Below, in pieces: positions 2,290 to 9,075 of a stretch of DNA of 40,000 bases. The DNA is from Microcystis aeruginosa FD4 (GTDB taxonomy: Bacteria; Cyanobacteriota; Cyanobacteriia; Cyanobacteriales; Microcystaceae). The stretch covers positions 1,473,062 through 1,513,061 of the forward strand of contig NZ_CP046973.1 in NCBI RefSeq assembly GCF_009792235.1. The letters run 5' to 3'. Numbering within the stretch: position 1 is the stretch's first letter; every line of letters starts with the position of its first letter. The notes under the pieces are model-generated. The model searched no databases. It was given only the letters and a program-made list of their open reading frames with translations, and was not told the DNA's origin. A program made the position numbers and the translations under genes.

Positions 2290-3710
2290 TTGACATCCTC
2301 ACCGCCGTAAACGGACGGTGATTCCCAAACCTCACGATTTGGGTTTCTGCTTCTTTCCCTTGCGGGGTTCCGCACCTGCCTTAACAGATTTACTCTGTTC
2401 TGGTCTTATGGTCGCTCTACAGACTGACACCGCAAGTCCTGCGGCCAAAATGTTTTTACTGGCGTTAATATCTCGGTCATGGTGAGTCCCGCAGTCTGGA
2501 CAATCCCATTCTCGAATATTTAACGGCATTTTCTCAGCAATATACCCGCAATTACTACACCTTTTAGAACTGGGAAACCATCTATCTATTTCGATGTAAT
2601 TTCTCCCATACCAACGGCATTTATAGGCTAATTGTCGAGTTATTTCTCCCCAACTAACGTCAGATATTGCCTGAGATAATTTCGGGTTTTTGACCAGATT
2701 CTTGACGGCTAAATTCTCAACCACAATCGTTTGGTTTTCACGAACTAATTGAGTGGTTAGCTTGTGTAAATGGTCTTTTCTACTATCAGTAATTTGGGCG
2801 TGAATCTTGGCTACTTTGATTCTCGCTTTTTCCCGATTTTTTGACCCTTTCTGTTTTCTAGAAAGGCTTTTTGGGTCCTTTCGCAGTCTCCGATAATGCT
2901 TTTTAAAATGCTTGGGATTAGATACCTTGTCTCCATCGCTGGTAATCACAAGGCTACTAATTCCTAAGTCAATTCCGATGGCTTTATCGGTTGGGGGTAA
3001 GGGTTTAATTGTTGGGTCATCAAATCTTATTGAGATATGCCAACGTCCAGAAGGATGTAATCTGACTGTTACTGTGCTTGGTTCACAAGCTTCTGGTATT
3101 TGTCTTGACCATCGAATAGGTAAAGGTTCTGTGCATTTAGCTAAATAGATTTGTTTGTCTTTGAACTTAAAAGCAGATTTGGTAAATTCGGCACTTCCTC
3201 CTTGATGTTTTTTCTTAAAGTTAGGATACTTAGTACGACCAGCAAAGAAATTGGTAAAAGCTGTTTGTAGGTGTCTTAACCCTTGTTGCAAAGGTACACA
3301 GCTTACTTCGTTGAGAAAGTCTAATTCTTCTTGCTTTTTCCACTCGGTTAGCATTGAAGAGGTTTCAGTATATCCTACTCTTTCTTGCTTTTCGTACCAT
3401 GCTTGTGTTCTGAGATGGAGAGCTTTATTGTAAACCAATCTTACACAGCCCAAAGTGCGCCGCAATAGCGACTCTTGTTCGGGTGTGGGGTAAAATCGAA
3501 ACGAATAGGCTTTTTCCATGTCTCACATTTTAGCATATATTTGGTAAATGCGCTATAGCAAATAATGGGTTATTTAGGACGCTTTCAATTTTCAAACTCT
3601 TATCTGAACAGGGTTTCAGCGATGGATTGTCCTAAGCACCTTGGTCTTTGCTATAGTATTTAACGGTAAAGCCGTCGTAGAACGACGGGGTTTCAGACCC
3701 AAAATTTTCG
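2290..3710 (-). mobile_element. IS200/IS605-family tnpB-only element (IS1341 group), complete copy
   Basis: The right end at 2290 reads TTGACATCCTCACCGCCGTAAACGGACGGTG, i.e. ...GTCAA on the element strand plus a hairpin. The left end has the hairpin CCGTCGTAGAACGACGG at about 3672-3688 and terminates ...CCCAAAATTTTCGAT at 3710. A second copy of the same right end occurs at 39353. Confidence 0.8.
2332..3519 (-). CDS. tnpB: TnpB/OrfB RNA-guided endonuclease-like transposase accessory protein
   Basis: 395 aa. N-terminus YSFRFYPTPEQESLLRRTLGCVRLVYNKAL, RuvC-like GIDLG and VVENL motifs, zinc finger CSNCG...CPDCG and a DRDINASKNI tail. Confidence 0.92.
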   Translation of the reverse strand: MEKAYSFRFYPTPEQESLLRRTLGCVRLVYNKALHLRTQAWYEKQERVGYTETSSMLTEWKKQEELDFLNEVSCVPLQQGLRHLQTAFTNFFAGRTKYPNFKKKHQGGSAEFTKSAFKFKDKQIYLAKCTEPLPIRWSRQIPEACEPSTVTVRLHPSGRWHISIRFDDPTIKPLPPTDKAIGIDLGISSLVITSDGDKVSNPKHFKKHYRRLRKDPKSLSRKQKGSKNREKARIKVAKIHAQITDSRKDHLHKLTTQLVRENQTIVVENLAVKNLVKNPKLSQAISDVSWGEITRQLAYKCRWYGRNYIEIDRWFPSSKRCSNCGYIAEKMPLNIREWDCPDCGTHHDRDINASKNILAAGLAVSVCRATIRPEQSKSVKAGAEPRKGKKQKPKS

Positions 3711-3734
3711 ATGAAATTAAAAGTTCTATGATAG

Positions 3735-3826
3735 AACGTAGGTTGGGTTGAAGCATGAAACCCAACGCTCGCATAGTTTACGCTACCGCTAACCCATCCT
3801 ACAAATAATTGTGCCTATCTACTTAA
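3735..3826 (-). mobile_element. 92-bp hairpin-forming MITE, copy 1 of 3 (others at 15626-15717 and 20954-21045, opposite orientation)
   Basis: Sequence AACGTAGGTTGGGTTGAAGCATGAAACCCAAC...CCCATCCTACAAATAATTGTGCC. It has subterminal inverted GTAGG(A/T)TGGGTT arms and an inner GTTGGGTT/AACCCAAC stem. A 24-bp direct repeat flanks it at 3711-3734 and 3827-3850. Confidence 0.7.
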
Positions 3827-3932
3827 ATGAAATTAAAAGTTCTATGATAGGGGTAAGAGTTGTCAAATTGCTGGCAACTTAACCCCCAAAAATCCGATCA
3901 ATAAGTTAACCCTCATTACCCCGATTTTATCT

Positions 3933-4325
3933 ATGGAACCGATAACAGTGGCGACAATTGTTGCTTTGGTATTTCAGACTACTGTAGAAAAATTTACTGA
4001 AGCTGCTCTAGAAAAAATTAATACTTTGCGGCAAATTATCTGGAATAAACTTAAAGCTAATCCTAATGCTGAAAAAGCTTTACAAGCTGCTGAAAAAGGG
4101 TCAAAAACTGATCTAGAAAAAGTGGCAGATTATTTAAAGGTTGCCATGAATGATGAAGCAGATTTTGCCGAAAAAGTCAAGGGTTTAGCAACAGAAATTC
4201 AATCCTTGAAAATTCAGGATAATAGTAGTATGAACCAGGCTAATTCTGGAGGTCAAAATTTCCAGAATCAGGGGGAGGTTGGTGAAGTTTATCAAGCAGC
4301 AACTATAAACATCAATAAAACCTGA
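3933..4325 (+). CDS. 130-aa helical N-terminal domain, in frame with the downstream NB-ARC/TPR ORF and separated from it by a single TGA
   Basis: Same frame as 4479..7235. Hydrophobic N-terminal helix MEPITVATIVALVFQTTV, three predicted helices, and a Q/N/G-rich tail GGQNFQNQGEVGEVYQAATININ. Confidence 0.6.
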   Translation: MEPITVATIVALVFQTTVEKFTEAALEKINTLRQIIWNKLKANPNAEKALQAAEKGSKTDLEKVADYLKVAMNDEADFAEKVKGLATEIQSLKIQDNSSMNQANSGGQNFQNQGEVGEVYQAATININKT

Positions 4326-4478
4326 CTGGAGCCGCCTGTTAAGGAACAGGTTAAACAACATCCTCACAATTTATCTAATAGTAATATCCCTAAATTTGTT
4401 GGTAGGGATAAGGAATTAATTGACTTAAAAAATAAATTACAACAATCCCAAAAGCTTGCTATATCTACCTTAACGGGA

Positions 4479-7235
4479 ATGGGAGGCATAGGTAAAACCG
4501 AACTAGCCAGACAATTTGGCTGGCAACAATGGCGAGAAAAAGCCTATCCAGGGGGTATATGTTGGTTAAATGTGGCAGAGAGTGATGGCGGTTTTATCGG
4601 TACTTCTATTTTAGATTTTGCCCGAGTACATTTCAAATTAACTTTACCGGATGAGGGAGAATTAGACATAAAAATTCGTTATTGTTGGCAAAATTGGTTA
4701 GCGGGAAATGTCTTAATTATTTTTGATGATGTACGGGATTATCAGCAAATTAAGTATTATTTACCACCGCAAGAGGAGAAACGCTTTCAGGTTTTAATTA
4801 CCACTCGCAAGGAATATTTATCAGCGACAATTGCGACTTTTCGGGTAGAAGTTTTAAAAGAAGAAGATGCACTTGATTTATTGCGTTCCTACCTCGGAGA
4901 TAACAGAATTGACACACAAATCGAAGAAGCTAAATTATTGTGTCAGGATTTGGGTTATTTGCCCTTAGGGTTAGAATTGGTGGCAAGGTTGCTGGTACGA
5001 CGACAGGATTGGAAAATTAGCAAAATACGGCAGAAGTTAGCAGAAAACGGCTTAGAGGAGCAAATTTTAGAGAAAAATCCCAAGTTTCATGGGGAAATGA
5101 CAGCAGAAAGAGGGTTGAAAGCTGCCTTTAATCTCAGTTGGGAGGAGTTGAATAGCGAACCAGATGCCCAAATTTTGGCACTTTACCTCAGTTTATTCGC
5201 TCTTGCGCCCTTTTTCAAGGAGATGATTCTGGATTTATTTCCCGATGAGGATGGGGATACAGTAGAGGAATGGTTAACCGATAGCTTAGTTCACCTGAGC
5301 TTAGTTCAGGATAAGGGTGAGGGTTGGTATGAAATTCATCCCCTGTTGCGTCGCTATTTTCGGGATAAGTTAGAAGCATCACCCCACGCAGAACCAGCAA
5401 AGCGCCGCTATTGCGGTATTATGGCCAAAAAATCGGCAGAAATGCCACAGGATGTGACTGTAGAAATCGTTGAAGATTTTAAACCTTTCCTTCTCCATCT
5501 GCAAGCATCTGTCGGGGAATATCCAGAATATATCGCTGATGAGGATTTAGCTCGGTCCTATACGGGTTTAGCTCGTTATTATGAAGGACAAGGATTGTAT
5601 GCTATTGCTGAACCTTACTATCAAAATTGTTTAACCGCAACTCGAACCCGTTTAGGAGACAATCATCCCGATGTGGCAAGTTCCCTCAACAATTTAGCAC
5701 TATTGTACGAATCCCAAGGCAGATACACAGAAGCGGAACCTCTCTATCTAGAAGCATTAGATTTGTATAAACGACTCTTAGGAGACAATCATCCCGATGT
5801 GGCAACTTCCCTCAACAATTTAGCAGGATTGTACGATTCCCAAGGCAGATACACAGAAGCGGAACCTCTCTATCTAGAAGCATTAGATTTGTATAAACGA
5901 CTCTTAGGAGACAATCATCCCGATGTGGCAACTTCCCTCAACAATTTAGCAGGATTGTACGATTCCCAAGGCAGATACCCAGAAGCAGAGCCTCTCCTTC
6001 TAGAAGCATTAGATTTGAGAAAACGACTCTTAGGAGACAATCATCCCGATGTGGCAACTTCCCTCAACAATTTAGCAGGATTGTACGATTCCCAAGGCAG
6101 ATACACAGAAGCGGAACCTCTCTATCTAGAAGCATTAGATTTGAGAAAACGACTCTTAGGAGACAATCATCCCGATGTGGCAACTTCCCTCAACAATTTA
6201 GCAGGATTGTACGATTCCCAAGGCAGATACCCAGAAGCAGAGCCTCTCCTTCTAGAAGCATTAGATTTGAGAAAACGACTCTTAGGAGACAATCATCCCG
6301 ATGTGGCAACTTCCCTCAACAATTTAGCAGGATTGTACGATTCCCAAGGCAGATACACAGAAGCGGAACCTCTCTATCTAGAAGCATTAGATTTGATAAA
6401 ACGACTCTTAGGAGACAATCATCCCGATGTGGCAACTTCCCTCAACAATTTAGCAGGATTGTACGATTCCCAAGGCAGATACCCAGAAGCAGAGCCTCTC
6501 CTTCTAGAAGCATTAGATTTGAGAAAACGACTCTTAGGAGACAATCATCCCGATGTCGCACTTTCCCTCAACAATTTAGCAGGATTGTACAAATCCCAAG
6601 GCAGATACACAGAAGCGGAACCTCTCTATCTAGAAGCATTAGATTTGATAAAACGACTCTTAGGAGACAATCATCCCCTTGTGGCAACTTCCCTCAACAA
6701 TTTAGCAGGATTGTACGATTCCCAAGGCAGATACACAGAAGCGGAACCTCTCTATCTAGAAGCATTAGATTTGAGAAAACGACTCTTAGGAGACAATCAT
6801 CCCGATGTCGCACTTTCCCTCAACAATTTAGCAGTATTGTACCGTTCCCAAGGCAGATACACAGAAGCGGAACCTCTCTATCTAGAAGCATTAGATTTGA
6901 GAAAACGACTCTTAGGAGACAATCATCCCGATGTGGCACTTTCCCTCAACAATTTAGCATATTTGTACCAATACCAAGGCAGATACACAGAAGCGGAACC
7001 TCTCTATCTAGAAGCATTAGATTTGAGAAAACGACTCTTAGGAGACAATCATCCCGATGTGGCAACTTCCCTCAACAATTTAGCAGGATTGTACGATTCC
7101 CAAGGCAGATACCCAGAAGCGGAACCTCTCTATCTAGAAGCTTTAGCAATTGCCGAGCAAGCTTTAGGGGAGAATCATCCTAATACAATAATATTTCGGG
7201 AAAATTATGCTATCTGTCTTCGTCGTGGGGGATAA
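4479..7235 (+). CDS. STAND NTPase (NB-ARC) fused to a 13-unit TPR array; NLR-like. The frame is open from 4326, and the listed ATG lies inside the Walker A motif
   Basis: Walker A GMGGIGKTELA and Walker B LIIFDDV. GYLPLGLELVA resembles the NB-ARC GLPLA motif. These are followed by 42-aa TPR units (LGDNHPDVATSLNNLAGLYDSQGRYTEAEPLYLEALDLRKRL). Confidence 0.85.
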   Translation: MGGIGKTELARQFGWQQWREKAYPGGICWLNVAESDGGFIGTSILDFARVHFKLTLPDEGELDIKIRYCWQNWLAGNVLIIFDDVRDYQQIKYYLPPQEEKRFQVLITTRKEYLSATIATFRVEVLKEEDALDLLRSYLGDNRIDTQIEEAKLLCQDLGYLPLGLELVARLLVRRQDWKISKIRQKLAENGLEEQILEKNPKFHGEMTAERGLKAAFNLSWEELNSEPDAQILALYLSLFALAPFFKEMILDLFPDEDGDTVEEWLTDSLVHLSLVQDKGEGWYEIHPLLRRYFRDKLEASPHAEPAKRRYCGIMAKKSAEMPQDVTVEIVEDFKPFLLHLQASVGEYPEYIADEDLARSYTGLARYYEGQGLYAIAEPYYQNCLTATRTRLGDNHPDVASSLNNLALLYESQGRYTEAEPLYLEALDLYKRLLGDNHPDVATSLNNLAGLYDSQGRYTEAEPLYLEALDLYKRLLGDNHPDVATSLNNLAGLYDSQGRYPEAEPLLLEALDLRKRLLGDNHPDVATSLNNLAGLYDSQGRYTEAEPLYLEALDLRKRLLGDNHPDVATSLNNLAGLYDSQGRYPEAEPLLLEALDLRKRLLGDNHPDVATSLNNLAGLYDSQGRYTEAEPLYLEALDLIKRLLGDNHPDVATSLNNLAGLYDSQGRYPEAEPLLLEALDLRKRLLGDNHPDVALSLNNLAGLYKSQGRYTEAEPLYLEALDLIKRLLGDNHPLVATSLNNLAGLYDSQGRYTEAEPLYLEALDLRKRLLGDNHPDVALSLNNLAVLYRSQGRYTEAEPLYLEALDLRKRLLGDNHPDVALSLNNLAYLYQYQGRYTEAEPLYLEALDLRKRLLGDNHPDVATSLNNLAGLYDSQGRYPEAEPLYLEALAIAEQALGENHPNTIIFRENYAICLRRGG
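5652..7163 (+). repeat. Twelve near-identical 126-bp tandem repeats encoding the TPR units, with a partial 252-bp higher-order periodicity
   Basis: TTAGGAGACAATCATCCC recurs at 5652 + 126k for k = 0 to 11. A diverged cap unit starts at 7164. Confidence 0.95.
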
Positions 7236-7253: not shown

Positions 7254-7700
7254 ATGAAAATCTACTTAGATACTAGCGCACTCCATCGTATTTTTGATGA
7301 TCGCTCTCAGGTACGCATTGCTCTTGAAGCTTTAGCAGTACAATCTATTCTATTGCTAATTCAAGAACGTACAGTCGAACTAATTATATCAGACGCACTT
7401 GCCTATGAAATCTCTCGCAATCCTTATCCAGAAAATAAAATGACTGCTTTTAGCATTTTACGACTTGCCAACTCTTATCAAGTATTGACAACTGAAACGT
7501 TAAATCGTGGACAACAACTAGAAACAAATGATAACATCGGTAAACTAGATGCTTTACATCTAGCCTGTGCCGAATCTCAACAGGTTGATTTCTTTATTAC
7601 TTGCGATGATCGCCTCATCAAACGCTATAAAGGTATAATGCGTATATGTAATCCTGTCGAATTTATTTTACTAATGACTGAATCAGGAGATAAATCATGA
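7254..7700 (+). CDS. PIN-domain nuclease (toxin-like)
   Basis: 148 aa. Acidic PIN signature positions: IYLDTSAL, LDALHLA, ITCDDRL. Starts 18 bp after the NLR-like stop. Confidence 0.75.
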   Translation: MKIYLDTSALHRIFDDRSQVRIALEALAVQSILLLIQERTVELIISDALAYEISRNPYPENKMTAFSILRLANSYQVLTTETLNRGQQLETNDNIGKLDALHLACAESQQVDFFITCDDRLIKRYKGIMRICNPVEFILLMTESGDKS

Positions 7701-7924
7701 AAATTGACTTCCCTAGTTTACCTCGTAACACTGAATTGCATCGTGAAGCTATTGAAATTCTAAACGAACGAATGGGTATCGCCAAAGCTGCCATCTTTAT
7801 GAGTGATGCCTTTTGGAAACCAACTGACTATCTAGAAATTAAACATAATCTGTTTGCTGATGAAACTGTTGCTAGTCTTTATGAAAAAGTGGTACTTTGG
7901 CGTGAGCAAACTCAAAAACCCTAA
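7697..7924 (+). CDS. 75-aa partner of the PIN protein (putative antitoxin, family unrecognised)
   Basis: ATGA start/stop overlap with 7254..7700 indicates translational coupling. No motif recognised. Confidence 0.5.
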   Translation: MKIDFPSLPRNTELHREAIEILNERMGIAKAAIFMSDAFWKPTDYLEIKHNLFADETVASLYEKVVLWREQTQKP

Positions 7925-7936
7925 TATTACAGTAAT

Positions 7937-8380
7937 ATGTAGCAACTTTCCTCAACAATTTAGCAGAATTATACTCATCTCAAGGAAGGTACATATAGCG
8001 GAAGTCATAAGTCAGAACCCCTCTATTTACAAGCTTTAGAATTGTATAAACGACTCTTAGGAGACAATCATCCCCTTGTGGCACAATCTCTCAACAATTT
8101 AGCATACTTGTACCAATCCCAAGGCAGATACCCAGAAGCAGAACCTCTCTATCTAGAAGCATTAGATTTGATAAAACGACTCTTAGGAGACAATCATCCC
8201 TCTGTGGCACAATCCCTCAACAATTTAGCAGAATTGTACAAATCCCAAGGCAGATACACAGAAGCAGAACCTCTCTATCTAGAAGCTTTAGCAATTGCCG
8301 AGCAAGCTTTAGGGGAGAATCATCCTAATACAATAATATTTCGGGAAAATTATGCTATCTGTCTTCGTCGTGGGGGATAG
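7937..8380 (+). pseudogene. Displaced or decayed copy of the NLR-like TPR C-terminus (remnant 2)
   Basis: TPR-unit homology runs from about 7937 with an in-frame TAG and a 12-bp insertion. The distal part is intact (ORF 8042..8380). The last 113 bp (8267-8379) match 7122-7234 exactly by eye. Confidence 0.75.
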
Positions 8381-8467: not shown

Positions 8468-8710
8468 ATGACAACCAACTTATTAAATAATGCTATTACC
8501 ATAGATAACGAAATTCAACATGGTAAACCAATATTAACAGGAACCCGAATCCCGATCGCCATTGTTATTGGTTCCCTGGCAGGAGGAATGAGCTATGAAG
8601 AAGTCATGGAGGAATATGGAGTTACTCAAGAGCAAATTCTTGCTTCTTTAGCATATTTTTCTGAACTTTTAAATAATGAAATCATTTATCCAATGGAGAA
8701 AACCAGTTGA
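8468..8710 (+). CDS. DUF433-family small protein (antitoxin-like)
   Basis: 80 aa. The GKPILTGTRIPIAIVIGSLAGGMSYEEVMEEY pattern is typical of DUF433. Overlaps the next gene (TTGA). Confidence 0.7.
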   Translation: MTTNLLNNAITIDNEIQHGKPILTGTRIPIAIVIGSLAGGMSYEEVMEEYGVTQEQILASLAYFSELLNNEIIYPMEKTS

Positions 8711-9075
8711 AAATTCGCTTTTTAATTGATCAAGACTGCCCCTTAAGTTTAAGCAACTTGCTAAATTCTAAAGGTTATGACGCTATTCATGTAAAAACCT
8801 CTGGACTAAGTGGCACAAAAGACCCTGAGCTATTTCGATTTGCTCAACGAGAACAGCGAATTATTATTAGCCGTGATTTGGGATGGGCTAATATCAAAAA
8901 TTATCCTCCCAATACCCATTGTGGTCTGATTATTTTACGATTTCCTTTTGAGGCGATAGCGGTAGAAATTAGACAGGTTTTAGAAAATTTTATCAATACC
9001 GTAGATATAGAAGAAATTATTGGCTCAACGGTAATTGTGGATAAAAATAAGTTTAGGATCAGAAAATCTGGTTGA
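8707..9075 (+). CDS. DUF5615 / Mut7-C PIN-like protein (toxin-like partner of DUF433)
   Basis: 122 aa. FLIDQDCP...GYDAIHV...RIIISRDLG...GLIILR pattern. TTG start overlaps the upstream stop. Confidence 0.65.
   Translation: MKIRFLIDQDCPLSLSNLLNSKGYDAIHVKTSGLSGTKDPELFRFAQREQRIIISRDLGWANIKNYPPNTHCGLIILRFPFEAIAVEIRQVLENFINTVDIEEIIGSTVIVDKNKFRIRKSG

Follow-up and report, generated by a model that had tools for sequence, protein, structure and literature searches.

Organization of the locus in Microcystis aeruginosa FD4

The window analysed here is a stretch of 40,000 nucleotides (nt) from Microcystis aeruginosa FD4 (NCBI RefSeq assembly GCF_009792235.1, contig NZ_CP046973.1, positions 1,473,062 to 1,513,061 of the forward strand), and positions given without a locus label are counted from its first letter. 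It carries two adjoining open reading frames (ORFs) which are predicted to encode a short Bell-type helical effector, with a tail resembling a bacterial amyloid-signalling sequence (BASS), and an NLR made up of an NB-ARC NTPase and a TPR array. A single frame joins the ORF at 3933..4325 (130 amino acids, aa) and the ORF at 4479..7235, and the lone stop between them is the TGA at 4323-4325, which is followed by C (codon CTG). The 51 codons at 4326-4478 (LEPPVKEQVKQHPHNLSNSNIPKFVGRDKELIDLKNKLQQSQKLAISTLTG) are open and contain no ATG, GTG or TTG; the earliest ATG downstream of the TGA lies at 4479 and encodes the Met of G-M-G-G-I-G-K-T, from where the frame continues to 7235. The features of the locus, with their evidence in brackets, are as follows.

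3933..4325, + strand: short ORF of 130 aa, Bell-type helical effector with C-terminal BASS-like tail (homologues, MEPITVATIVALVF N-terminus)
3933..4217, + strand: Bell-like helical domain, residues 1-95 (AlphaFold2 model)
4218..4322, + strand: Q/N/G-rich amyloid-like motif region, residues 96-130, DNSSMNQANSGGQNFQNQGEVGEVYQAATININKT (alignment; disordered in the model)
4323..4325, + strand: in-frame UGA, candidate recoded stop (conserved among 43 junctions)
4326..4333, + strand: 8-nt spacer CUGGAGCC, whose first codon is the conserved Leu codon CUR, C at +4 (junction codon counts)
4334..4351, + strand: RNA hairpin S1, GCCUGUU-AAGG-AACAGGU, 7 bp including a closing G.U (RNAalifold, covariation, minimum free energy fold)
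4342..4364, + strand: tentative pseudoknot stem S2, AGGA 4342-4345 with UCCU 4361-4364, A-rich 9-nt connector
4326..4478, + strand: 51-codon linker holding the FVGRxxEL helix and the beta-1 strand of NB-ARC, no canonical start
4413..5075, + strand: NB-ARC NTPase, Walker A GMGGIGKT at 4476-4499 (PF00931, E 1.7e-19, residues 30-250 of the 4326 frame)
5658..7235, + strand: TPR sensor array of about 13 near-identical 42-aa units, stop at 7233-7235 (Pfam TPR_12/TPR_10, 13 stretches)

The NB-ARC domain begins, according to Pfam, at residue 30 of the 4326 frame and thus upstream of the ATG at 4479, with about 13 TPR units after it, so that a protein begun at 4479 would be without the first helix and strand of the NTPase fold. 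The window peptides QHPHNLSNSNIPK, FVGR and LAISTLTGMGGIGK are located upstream of this ATG or span it, and the candidate junction peptide is T-X-LEPPVK, X being the residue at the UGA, for which W would be expected and C, R or G are conceivable. An earlier sequence-only reading of the locus had described the two ORFs in one frame, the sole TGA, the 51 open start-less codons and the ATG inside the P-loop, all of which were re-derived exactly; its remark that the stop is followed by C also holds (the window reads TGA CTG), and its claim that the NLR part cannot start by itself is borne out by the Pfam boundary and by the lack of a start in the linker. The TPR array (5658-7166, + strand) is built of near-identical 126-nt units, with identical antisense ORFs at 5915, 6167 and 6419, and the post-stop ORF measures 969 aa in the window compared with 759, 698 and 682 aa in other strains, as the TPR copy number varies; these strain differences suggest rapid repeat expansion and contraction in the sensor.

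The upstream ORF was searched against a word index of 5.8 billion proteins, which returned 132 candidates, 62 of them homologues. All 62 are stand-alone proteins of 74-190 aa, which points to an ancient stop, and they are derived from Microcystis (27 clusters at 86-98% identity) as well as from Nostoc, Anabaena, Aphanothece and Moorena (~37-58%). The family alignment exhibits a helical domain opening with MEP(I/L)T and a hydrophobic helix, M1, E2, F21 and T22 being among the conserved residues, and a Q/N/G-rich C-terminal segment with the consensus QDNSSMxQxNY...G.Q.K.EGG..Y. In the published descriptions a Bell domain is some 100 aa long and consists of four helices that form a cup around a hydrophobic N-terminal helix bearing the 'MEPIS' motif (10.1101/2024.11.07.622273); the BASS that follows it has about 25 aa and is rich in Q, N and G (10.1101/2020.01.06.895854). 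The N-terminus of the upstream ORF, MEPITVATIVALVF, matches the 'MEPIS' hydrophobic helix of Bell/Hell domains in the form MEPIT, and the AlphaFold2 model displays five helices (6-15, 23-40, 44-54, 58-74 and 76-91), a block-mean pLDDT of 79-94 across residues 1-90 and a tail disordered from residue 96. This tail, residues 96-130, is similar to the ~25-aa BASS in composition and position, and in canonical relatives the aligned motif occurs twice, the second time on the NLR. The model had no match with E < 5 in PDB, and the N-domain fell into no significant family of Pfam, NCBIfam or PADLOC, where weak DUF7607 hits remained below threshold. Judged from alignment and composition, the upstream ORF encodes a Bell-domain protein that stands alone and is conserved as such, with a BASS-like amyloid-signalling tail for which amyloid formation is predicted.

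Relatives, stop codon and RNA element of the junction

A total of 49 genomic loci were fetched via the Bell alignment and tabulated for architecture, and three classes were observed. The canonical two-gene pairs (many Nostoc loci, Calothrix, Egbenema) have a Bell gene ending in TGA, TAA or TAG and an NLR that begins 11, 27 or 126 nt further on, in variable frame, with its own ATG or TTG. Their NLRs bear a second motif copy (L014, L016, L031, L053 and L084), for example '...NQDNAKGWQTKVEGGTVYQGEINIH' on the Bell protein and then 'MNQSNQDNAKGWQNKVEGGIVYQGDISIY...FVGRDEKL...GMGGMGKTE' on the NLR. The second class is a true fusion, P0119, of 957 aa and Bell-BASS-NB-ARC-TPR order, whose uninterrupted ORF was verified on DNA and which shows that the long product is a viable architecture. 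The third class, to which the window belongs, has one motif, an in-frame stop and an open frame leading directly into an NLR without a second motif, and it was detected in at least 12 named cyanobacterial taxa (Microcystis, Anabaena, Nostoc sp. LPT, Iphinoe, Fischerella, Coleofasciculaceae, Scytonema, Brasilonema, Aphanothece, Xenococcus, Rivularia and Moorena) and on metagenome contigs. In the window the NB-ARC and TPR regions lie collinear and directly downstream on the same strand as the Bell ORF, as in Bell/BASS-NLR pairs; no second motif was found between 4326 and the Walker A, so that the paired motif of such pairs is missing, and the uninterrupted ORF of an all-in-one NLR is broken by the TGA at 4323-4325. 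Post-stop codons 4-51 of the window align to translated residues 32-80 of a canonical NLR, directly behind its motif, and the post-stop region also aligns to P0119 from residue 146 onward, the NLR part being 43% identical to P0119.

The partners on both sides of the junction are diverse. All upstream partners begin with MEP- Bell-type helices, yet they carry at least five different C-terminal motifs, and the downstream partners are NB-ARC-TPR, nSTAND1-WD40 (with TAG) or protein kinase. NB-ARC-TPR is thus only one of the sensor types served by the junction, which behaves as a portable adaptor. The kinase case is L040 4421-5950 (Fischerella), where the stop and hairpin stand ahead of a protein-kinase-domain protein, and in L055 1843-4617 (Moorena) a TAG-type stop and hairpin precede an nSTAND1-WD40 NTPase. 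Another Moorena locus, L050 4001-6932, combines Bell, a partial motif, a predicted transmembrane segment and WD40 repeats in one ORF, with no NTPase.

Junction statistics were drawn from 43 non-redundant junctions pooled from the fetched loci and metagenome contigs, and the recurrence of the in-frame stop in so many loci goes well beyond chance. The window junction reads ACC TGA CTG GAG CCG CCT GTT AAG GAA CAG GTT, and that of Anabaena L007, whose N-domain is only ~50% identical, reads ACT TGA CTA CAG CCG CCC GTT GGA GAA CGG GTA. The in-frame stop is common to all Microcystis strains and to other cyanobacterial taxa with N-domain identities of only ~45-55%; the orthologue check that the sequence-only reading had proposed for codon 131 thus yielded a conserved TGA and not a sense codon. 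The stop is TGA in 40 junctions, TAG in 3 and TAA in none, whereas in the same loci the ORFs that reach 200 aa or more terminate with TAA (51%), TGA (28%) or TAG (21%). The codon after the stop is CTA (19), CTG (17), GTG (4), ATC (2) or CCG (1), with ATG or TTG in 0 of 43. C occupies +4 in 37 of the 43, compared with only 10% of TGA stops in neighbouring genes, and all 36 Leu codons at +1 are CTR, although CTA and CTG together make up 25% of Leu codons in the downstream ORFs. Conservation does not extend to the codon preceding the stop. UGA, C at +4 and UGA-CUA are classic leaky contexts (PMC7026636); as expected of readthrough, both the position and the identity of the stop are conserved in divergent orthologues, and identity and context are of the leaky kind.

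The metagenome contigs were searched with the post-stop block only (YCGYCCRAANGGGANCGGRYAAAG), the stop being left unspecified, which gave 33 matches on 32 contigs, one of them a chance match (L062). An in-frame TGA or TAG was located exactly 9 nt upstream in 31 of the 32 real matches, a figure that includes two junctions on L090 and some near-duplicates, and the remaining match is the NLR of the canonical locus L084; the search is also summarised as 31 true junctions, 30 of which have the in-frame stop at this distance. No sense codon occupied the stop position among the 32 real block matches or in the other junctions examined. P0129 ('...PKD W LNSSERDRTK') was considered as a TGA to TGG variant and dropped, as its DNA (L059) has TGA CTA and the hairpin; the public metagenome gene call at L059 488-1648 reads the junction TGA as Trp, apparently under a TGA=Trp code, and yields a spurious fused protein. 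In L076 (- strand, ~4638-4697) the junction is TGA CTG TAG, with a second in-frame stop one codon on, and this copy is either in decay or has two leaky stops in tandem. Comparison of these sequences indicates that the stop is ancient and not a recent mutation. TAA is one transition away from TGA and is preferred by these genomes, yet it was never seen, and neither were sense changes, so selection appears to oppose both tighter termination and the loss of termination; to judge from the lack of sense-codon variants, the termination product, the Bell effector alone, is evidently selected for.

The 30-40 nt after the stop are much better conserved than the coding sequence ahead of it, and a hairpin of 5-7 bp begins 8 nt downstream of the stop at a spacing that is constant across junctions. 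Its forms are listed below.

Window (4334-4351): GCCUGUU-AAGG-AACAGGU
Anabaena: GCCCGUU-GGAG-AACGGGU
Main class: GCCCG-AACGGGAA-CGGGC or GUCCG-AACGGGAA-CGGAC
Rivularia type: GUCAG-(9 nt)-CUGAC
Moorena: GCCUG-GGGAG-CAGGU

This hairpin, S1, was predicted independently by RNAalifold and is present in the minimum free energy fold of 5 of 6 sequences, the window included. Over 40 distinct sequences 96.5% of the cells are paired, one pair being CG 23, UA 14 and UG 3 with zero mismatch and another CG 35 and UA 3. In the metagenome set, where both positions were free in the search pattern, the counts were C-G 12, U-A 12, U-G 1 and C-A 0 (Fisher 2.7e-6, a P-value that overstates independence because many junction sequences are related). 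The compensating changes are both non-synonymous (Pro to Ser, Ala to Thr), which argues for selection on the RNA and not on the peptide, and synonymous divergence (pS) is 0.086 in post-stop codons 1-10 versus 0.58 in codons 11-50 and 0.66 at the NB-ARC start. A covariance model of the junction hit only these sites in 678 kb of fetched DNA, together with one extra junction (L060 9645-9704); its match in the canonical L084 was confined to sequence beyond the stop region. The second stem, S2, pairs AGGA with UCCU in the window, 9 nt after the hairpin across an A-rich connector, and the same columns pair GGGA with UCCC in the main class; a compensatory difference between L054 (CGGCA:UGCCG) and L057 (CGGUA:UACCG) and a G-C to A-U change in Microcystis lend it modest support, the stem being mostly invariant, so the H-type pseudoknot that S2 would form is tentative. 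An Rfam scan of 3700-4700 returned only chance-level matches, with no selenocysteine insertion sequence (SECIS) or known recoding element. The sequence-only reading had missed the conserved hairpin at 8 nt and the link to amyloid-signalling NLR pairs.

The NLR part shows coding constraint. Among five Microcystis strains the ratio of non-synonymous to synonymous divergence (pN/pS) is 0.23 in NB-ARC (pS 0.20), 0.35 in the next 180 codons and 0.54 in the 50 linker codons, with no stops, and purifying selection acts on the Microcystis NB-ARC; values for the main class are 0.22 for NB-ARC and 0.47 for linker codons 11-50. Post-stop ORFs run on for 500-1,500 codons in most loci. Depending on the junction, the position of the first in-frame ATG, GTG or TTG downstream of the stop ranges between codons 0 and 96, and no start before the Walker A is conserved across junctions, with none at all in Microcystis, Anabaena L007, L059, L078 and L089; a conserved alternative start in this interval, which the sequence-only reading had named as evidence against a single gene, was thus looked for and not found. 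The annotated NLR starts are ATC (L001 5529) or ATT (L007 5481) or lie beyond the P-loop, that of L008 (5667) being also arbitrary, and this arbitrariness reflects the absence of a real initiation codon.

The neighbourhood of the locus harbors mobile and toxin-antitoxin-type genes. An IS605-type TnpB gene (OrfB_IS605 and Cas12f1-like TNB domain; 2332-3519, - strand) stands between an aspartate kinase gene (484-2289) and the Bell gene; this insertion, ~105 nt upstream of the Bell ATG, is absent there in other Microcystis genomes, and a 24-nt direct repeat, ATGAAATTAAAAGTTCTATGATAG, occurs on its right side at 3711-3734 and 3827-3850. Just downstream of the NLR (7254-7924, + strand) is an overlapping toxin-antitoxin-type pair of a PIN domain and an unannotated 75-aa ORF, followed by an orphan TPR fragment of 112 aa (8042-8380, + strand) and a further overlapping pair of toxin-antitoxin type, DUF433 and DUF5615 (8468-9075, + strand); other strains have ParE and HicA/HicB genes at the equivalent downstream place. 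The final 31 residues of the TPR fragment (ALAIAEQALGENHPNTIIFRENYAICLRRGG) are identical to the NLR C-terminus at 7140-7232, and the fragment appears to be either the leftover 3' end of another NLR copy or a duplication.

Readings of the stop-hairpin junction

The observations are probably best accounted for by programmed UGA readthrough, through which one mRNA would yield abundant Bell-BASS and rare Bell-BASS-NLR. By default, most ribosomes would stop at the UGA (4323-4325) and release the 130-aa, 14-kDa Bell-BASS protein, which would be a killer aimed at the membrane, latent at first, with a tail predicted to form amyloid, and a minority would decode the UGA by a near-cognate tRNA, most likely tRNA-Trp in view of the known near-cognates (PMC7026636). 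Decoding would be aided by the weak UGA-CUR context and by the hairpin or possible pseudoknot, which at 8 nt on would sit at the mRNA entry channel. The product, Bell-BASS-NB-ARC-TPR of ~1,100 aa and about 125 kDa, would provide the NLR with the only amyloid-motif copy of the locus, where canonical relatives encode two, and the efficiency of readthrough would set a low sensor-to-effector ratio. Cyanobacteria are not known to possess Rho, the lack of which would allow a long, rarely translated 3' region of the mRNA to persist. By analogy with HET-S/NWD2 and Bab/Agp, a ligand on the TPR array may cause NB-ARC oligomerisation; the NLR oligomers would cluster the BASS segments and nucleate the amyloid fold, which would template the free Bell-BASS pool, whose N-terminal Bell helix would attack the membrane and lead to abortive infection or regulated cell death. 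UGA-C readthrough, one of the two explanations offered by the sequence-only reading, is a live one, with strong comparative support from the conserved TGA, its context and the hairpin; the other, a very recent nonsense pseudogene, is refuted by an ancient stop and an NLR under purifying selection (pN/pS 0.23). The description of one interrupted gene holds as regards one translational unit and fails as regards the upstream ORF, which is a conserved stand-alone effector.

Several points weigh against readthrough. Structure-stimulated readthrough of cellular genes has little known precedent in bacteria; the hairpin is small, and single-sequence folding energies are no better than those of shuffles (z -1.0 to +0.6); the relatedness of many junctions has been mentioned; and some individual junction copies are decaying, with downstream ORFs truncated to 101 aa (L012), 154 (L036), 140 (L042), 125 (L074) and 60 (L082). 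The canonical locus L084 (2861-3420; Bell stop TAA, NLR in another frame with an ATG and a motif of its own) has the SSERERVKSNPP block and hairpin directly after the NLR motif, so the role of the block may not be exclusive to recoding. The GTG, ATC and CTG codons found after some stops are moreover conceivable weak re-initiation codons. They bear on translational coupling, in which termination at the UGA is followed by a fresh start on the adjacent codon (CUG, GUG, AUC), close to it, or on some other non-canonical codon of the linker, the hairpin holding or pausing the terminating ribosome, and the NLR is made without Bell domain and amyloid motif. This is rather unlikely, though it can draw on the next codon being a possible weak start in 23 of 43 junctions, on the close spacing of canonical Bell-NLR pairs (57% within 10 bp, 42% overlapping; Dyrka et al., 10.1101/2020.01.06.895854) and on the presence of the block in the independently translated NLR of L084. 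It needs neither the same frame, the zero-codon gap, TGA over TAA, nor C at +4; neither the CTA of 19 junctions nor the one CCG is an initiation codon, CTG shows no enrichment over CTA once codon usage is taken into account, and ATG and TTG never stand at the post-stop position. The resulting NLR would also be motif-less, unlike every canonical relative, and the pair would be left without a known way to signal. Frameshifting or bypassing was rejected on the grounds of identical frames, a zero-codon gap and a pre-stop codon that lacks conservation.

The block may instead be mainly a module boundary at the level of DNA or protein, for example a recombination joint for cassette swaps, with the stop incidental. 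It does join at least five Bell/motif families to NB-ARC-TPR, nSTAND1-WD40 and protein kinase partners, a mosaic suggestive of frequent shuffling, and several copies occur per genome (L063/L064/L072 and L061/L076/L087, judged from shared assembly accession prefixes). Such a joint is compatible with a recoding function and not opposed to it, and as the sole explanation it is improbable, because it predicts neither the covariation, the fixed 8-nt distance to the stop, the TGA-C preference nor the avoidance of TAA, and leaves the translation of the NLR unexplained. There is a slim chance that the UGA works as a conditional gate, the NLR-bearing nucleator being made only when UGA termination is compromised: uninfected cells would hold a harmless Bell-BASS pool, and phage opal-suppressor tRNAs or recoded stops, phage attack on release factor 2 (RF2) or translational stress, as hallmarks of infection, would arm the defence at a threshold tuned by the hairpin or pseudoknot. 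That only Bell-BASS is functional and the NLR is an untranslated, not-yet-decayed remnant of an ancestral fused gene is very improbable. The truncated ORFs listed above, the second L060 junction with its NLR deleted and the richness of Microcystis genomes in insertion sequence elements, one of them just upstream of the window locus, would suit such a relic, but the stop is common to loci ~45-55% identical in the N-domain whose downstream ORFs are mostly open for 500-1,500 codons, NB-ARC evolves at pN/pS 0.23 (Microcystis) and 0.22 (main class), and a relic would not keep TGA over TAA, the +4 C, hairpin covariation and frozen synonymous sites. Selenocysteine (Sec) insertion at position 131, with the hairpin as a bacterial SECIS, is scarcely credible even though bacterial selenoprotein genes have as their formal signature just such an in-frame UGA and, a few nt on, a conserved hairpin within the coding region. 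Three junctions use TAG, neither Cys nor any sense codon occurs at this position in a homologue, and the site is a linker, not a redox position; Rfam gave no SECIS match in 3700-4700, and a tRNA scan of the window found no tRNA at all and so no tRNA-Sec. The hairpin loops (AAGG, AACGGGAA) are also unlike the E. coli fdhF-type loop. In a comparative survey the SelA/SelB decoding trait was not detected in Cyanobacteria (PMC1794560).

Comparison with known systems

Bell/BASS amyloid-signalling gene pairs are known from filamentous bacteria (Dyrka et al. 2020, 10.1101/2020.01.06.895854), in the context of the fungal HET-S/NWD2 paradigm and the E. coli Bab/Agp system (10.1101/2024.11.07.622273). 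The window locus is similar to them in its ~100-aa helical effector with an N-terminal hydrophobic 'MEPIS'-type helix, in its ~25-aa C-terminal Q/N/G-rich motif and in the adjoining collinear NB-ARC-TPR NLR downstream, and canonical members of its own protein family with paired motifs exist in Nostoc and Calothrix. It differs in that the NLR has no start codon and no second motif and stands in frame behind a conserved UGA and hairpin. Published screens for such pairs demanded the motif on both annotated proteins (10.1101/2020.01.06.895854), to which the single-motif class is invisible. The predicted readthrough product has the domain order of all-in-one NLRs such as P0119; unlike the locus, P0119 is uninterrupted and lacks the conserved block and hairpin, and the default product of the window would be the effector alone. 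Selenoprotein genes share the in-frame UGA closely followed by a conserved coding-region hairpin, and differ from the locus in the machinery, of which none is reported in this phylum, in the TAG variants, the lack of Cys homologues and the linker site. Full-text searches of the literature found no readthrough or recoding described for Bell/BASS/NLR or cyanobacterial STAND systems, and stop codons or readthrough in these systems are unmentioned in the Bell/BASS papers, the Aravind-group conflict-system papers and the selenium surveys. On the readthrough reading the locus would join an established immune module to an established kind of recoding, which is notable because conserved, structure-associated readthrough is very rare among cellular bacterial genes.

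If readthrough is confirmed, the junction would represent a rare conserved, RNA-structure-associated case of programmed readthrough in a cellular bacterial gene family, spanning at least 12 named taxa and several sensor types, and a third effector-NLR architecture in which one motif is shared through recoding and a low sensor-to-executioner ratio is hard-wired. It would account for start-less NLR genes that annotators have given ATC or ATT starts and for the misses of motif-pair screens, would bear on the nucleation of amyloid-based immune signalling, and would offer, in a compact signal of ~45 nt (UGA-CUR, 8-nt spacer, hairpin), a means to study how RF2 competes in bacteria.

UGA readthrough is known from the coat/A1 gene of phage Qbeta. 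Among established readthrough signals, that of murine leukaemia virus (MuLV) gag-pol has an 8-nt spacer and a pseudoknot, alphaviruses have UGA-C with a 3' stem-loop, and LDHB/MDH1 have UGA-CUA, with UGA-CUA and UGA-CGG being readthrough contexts of viruses and eukaryotic genes (PMC7026636). The junction resembles them in favouring UGA and avoiding UAA, in C at +4, in CUA or CUG as the next codon and in a structure ~8 nt on, the spacer being that of the MuLV signal (PMC7026636), and likewise in two predicted products with a common N-terminus whose ratio would be set by the signal. It is distinguished from the viral and eukaryotic cases by a bacterial host, in which RF2 and not eRF1 terminates at the UGA, by its place in a chromosomal cellular gene and by an extension that amounts to a complete 970-aa NTPase sensor.

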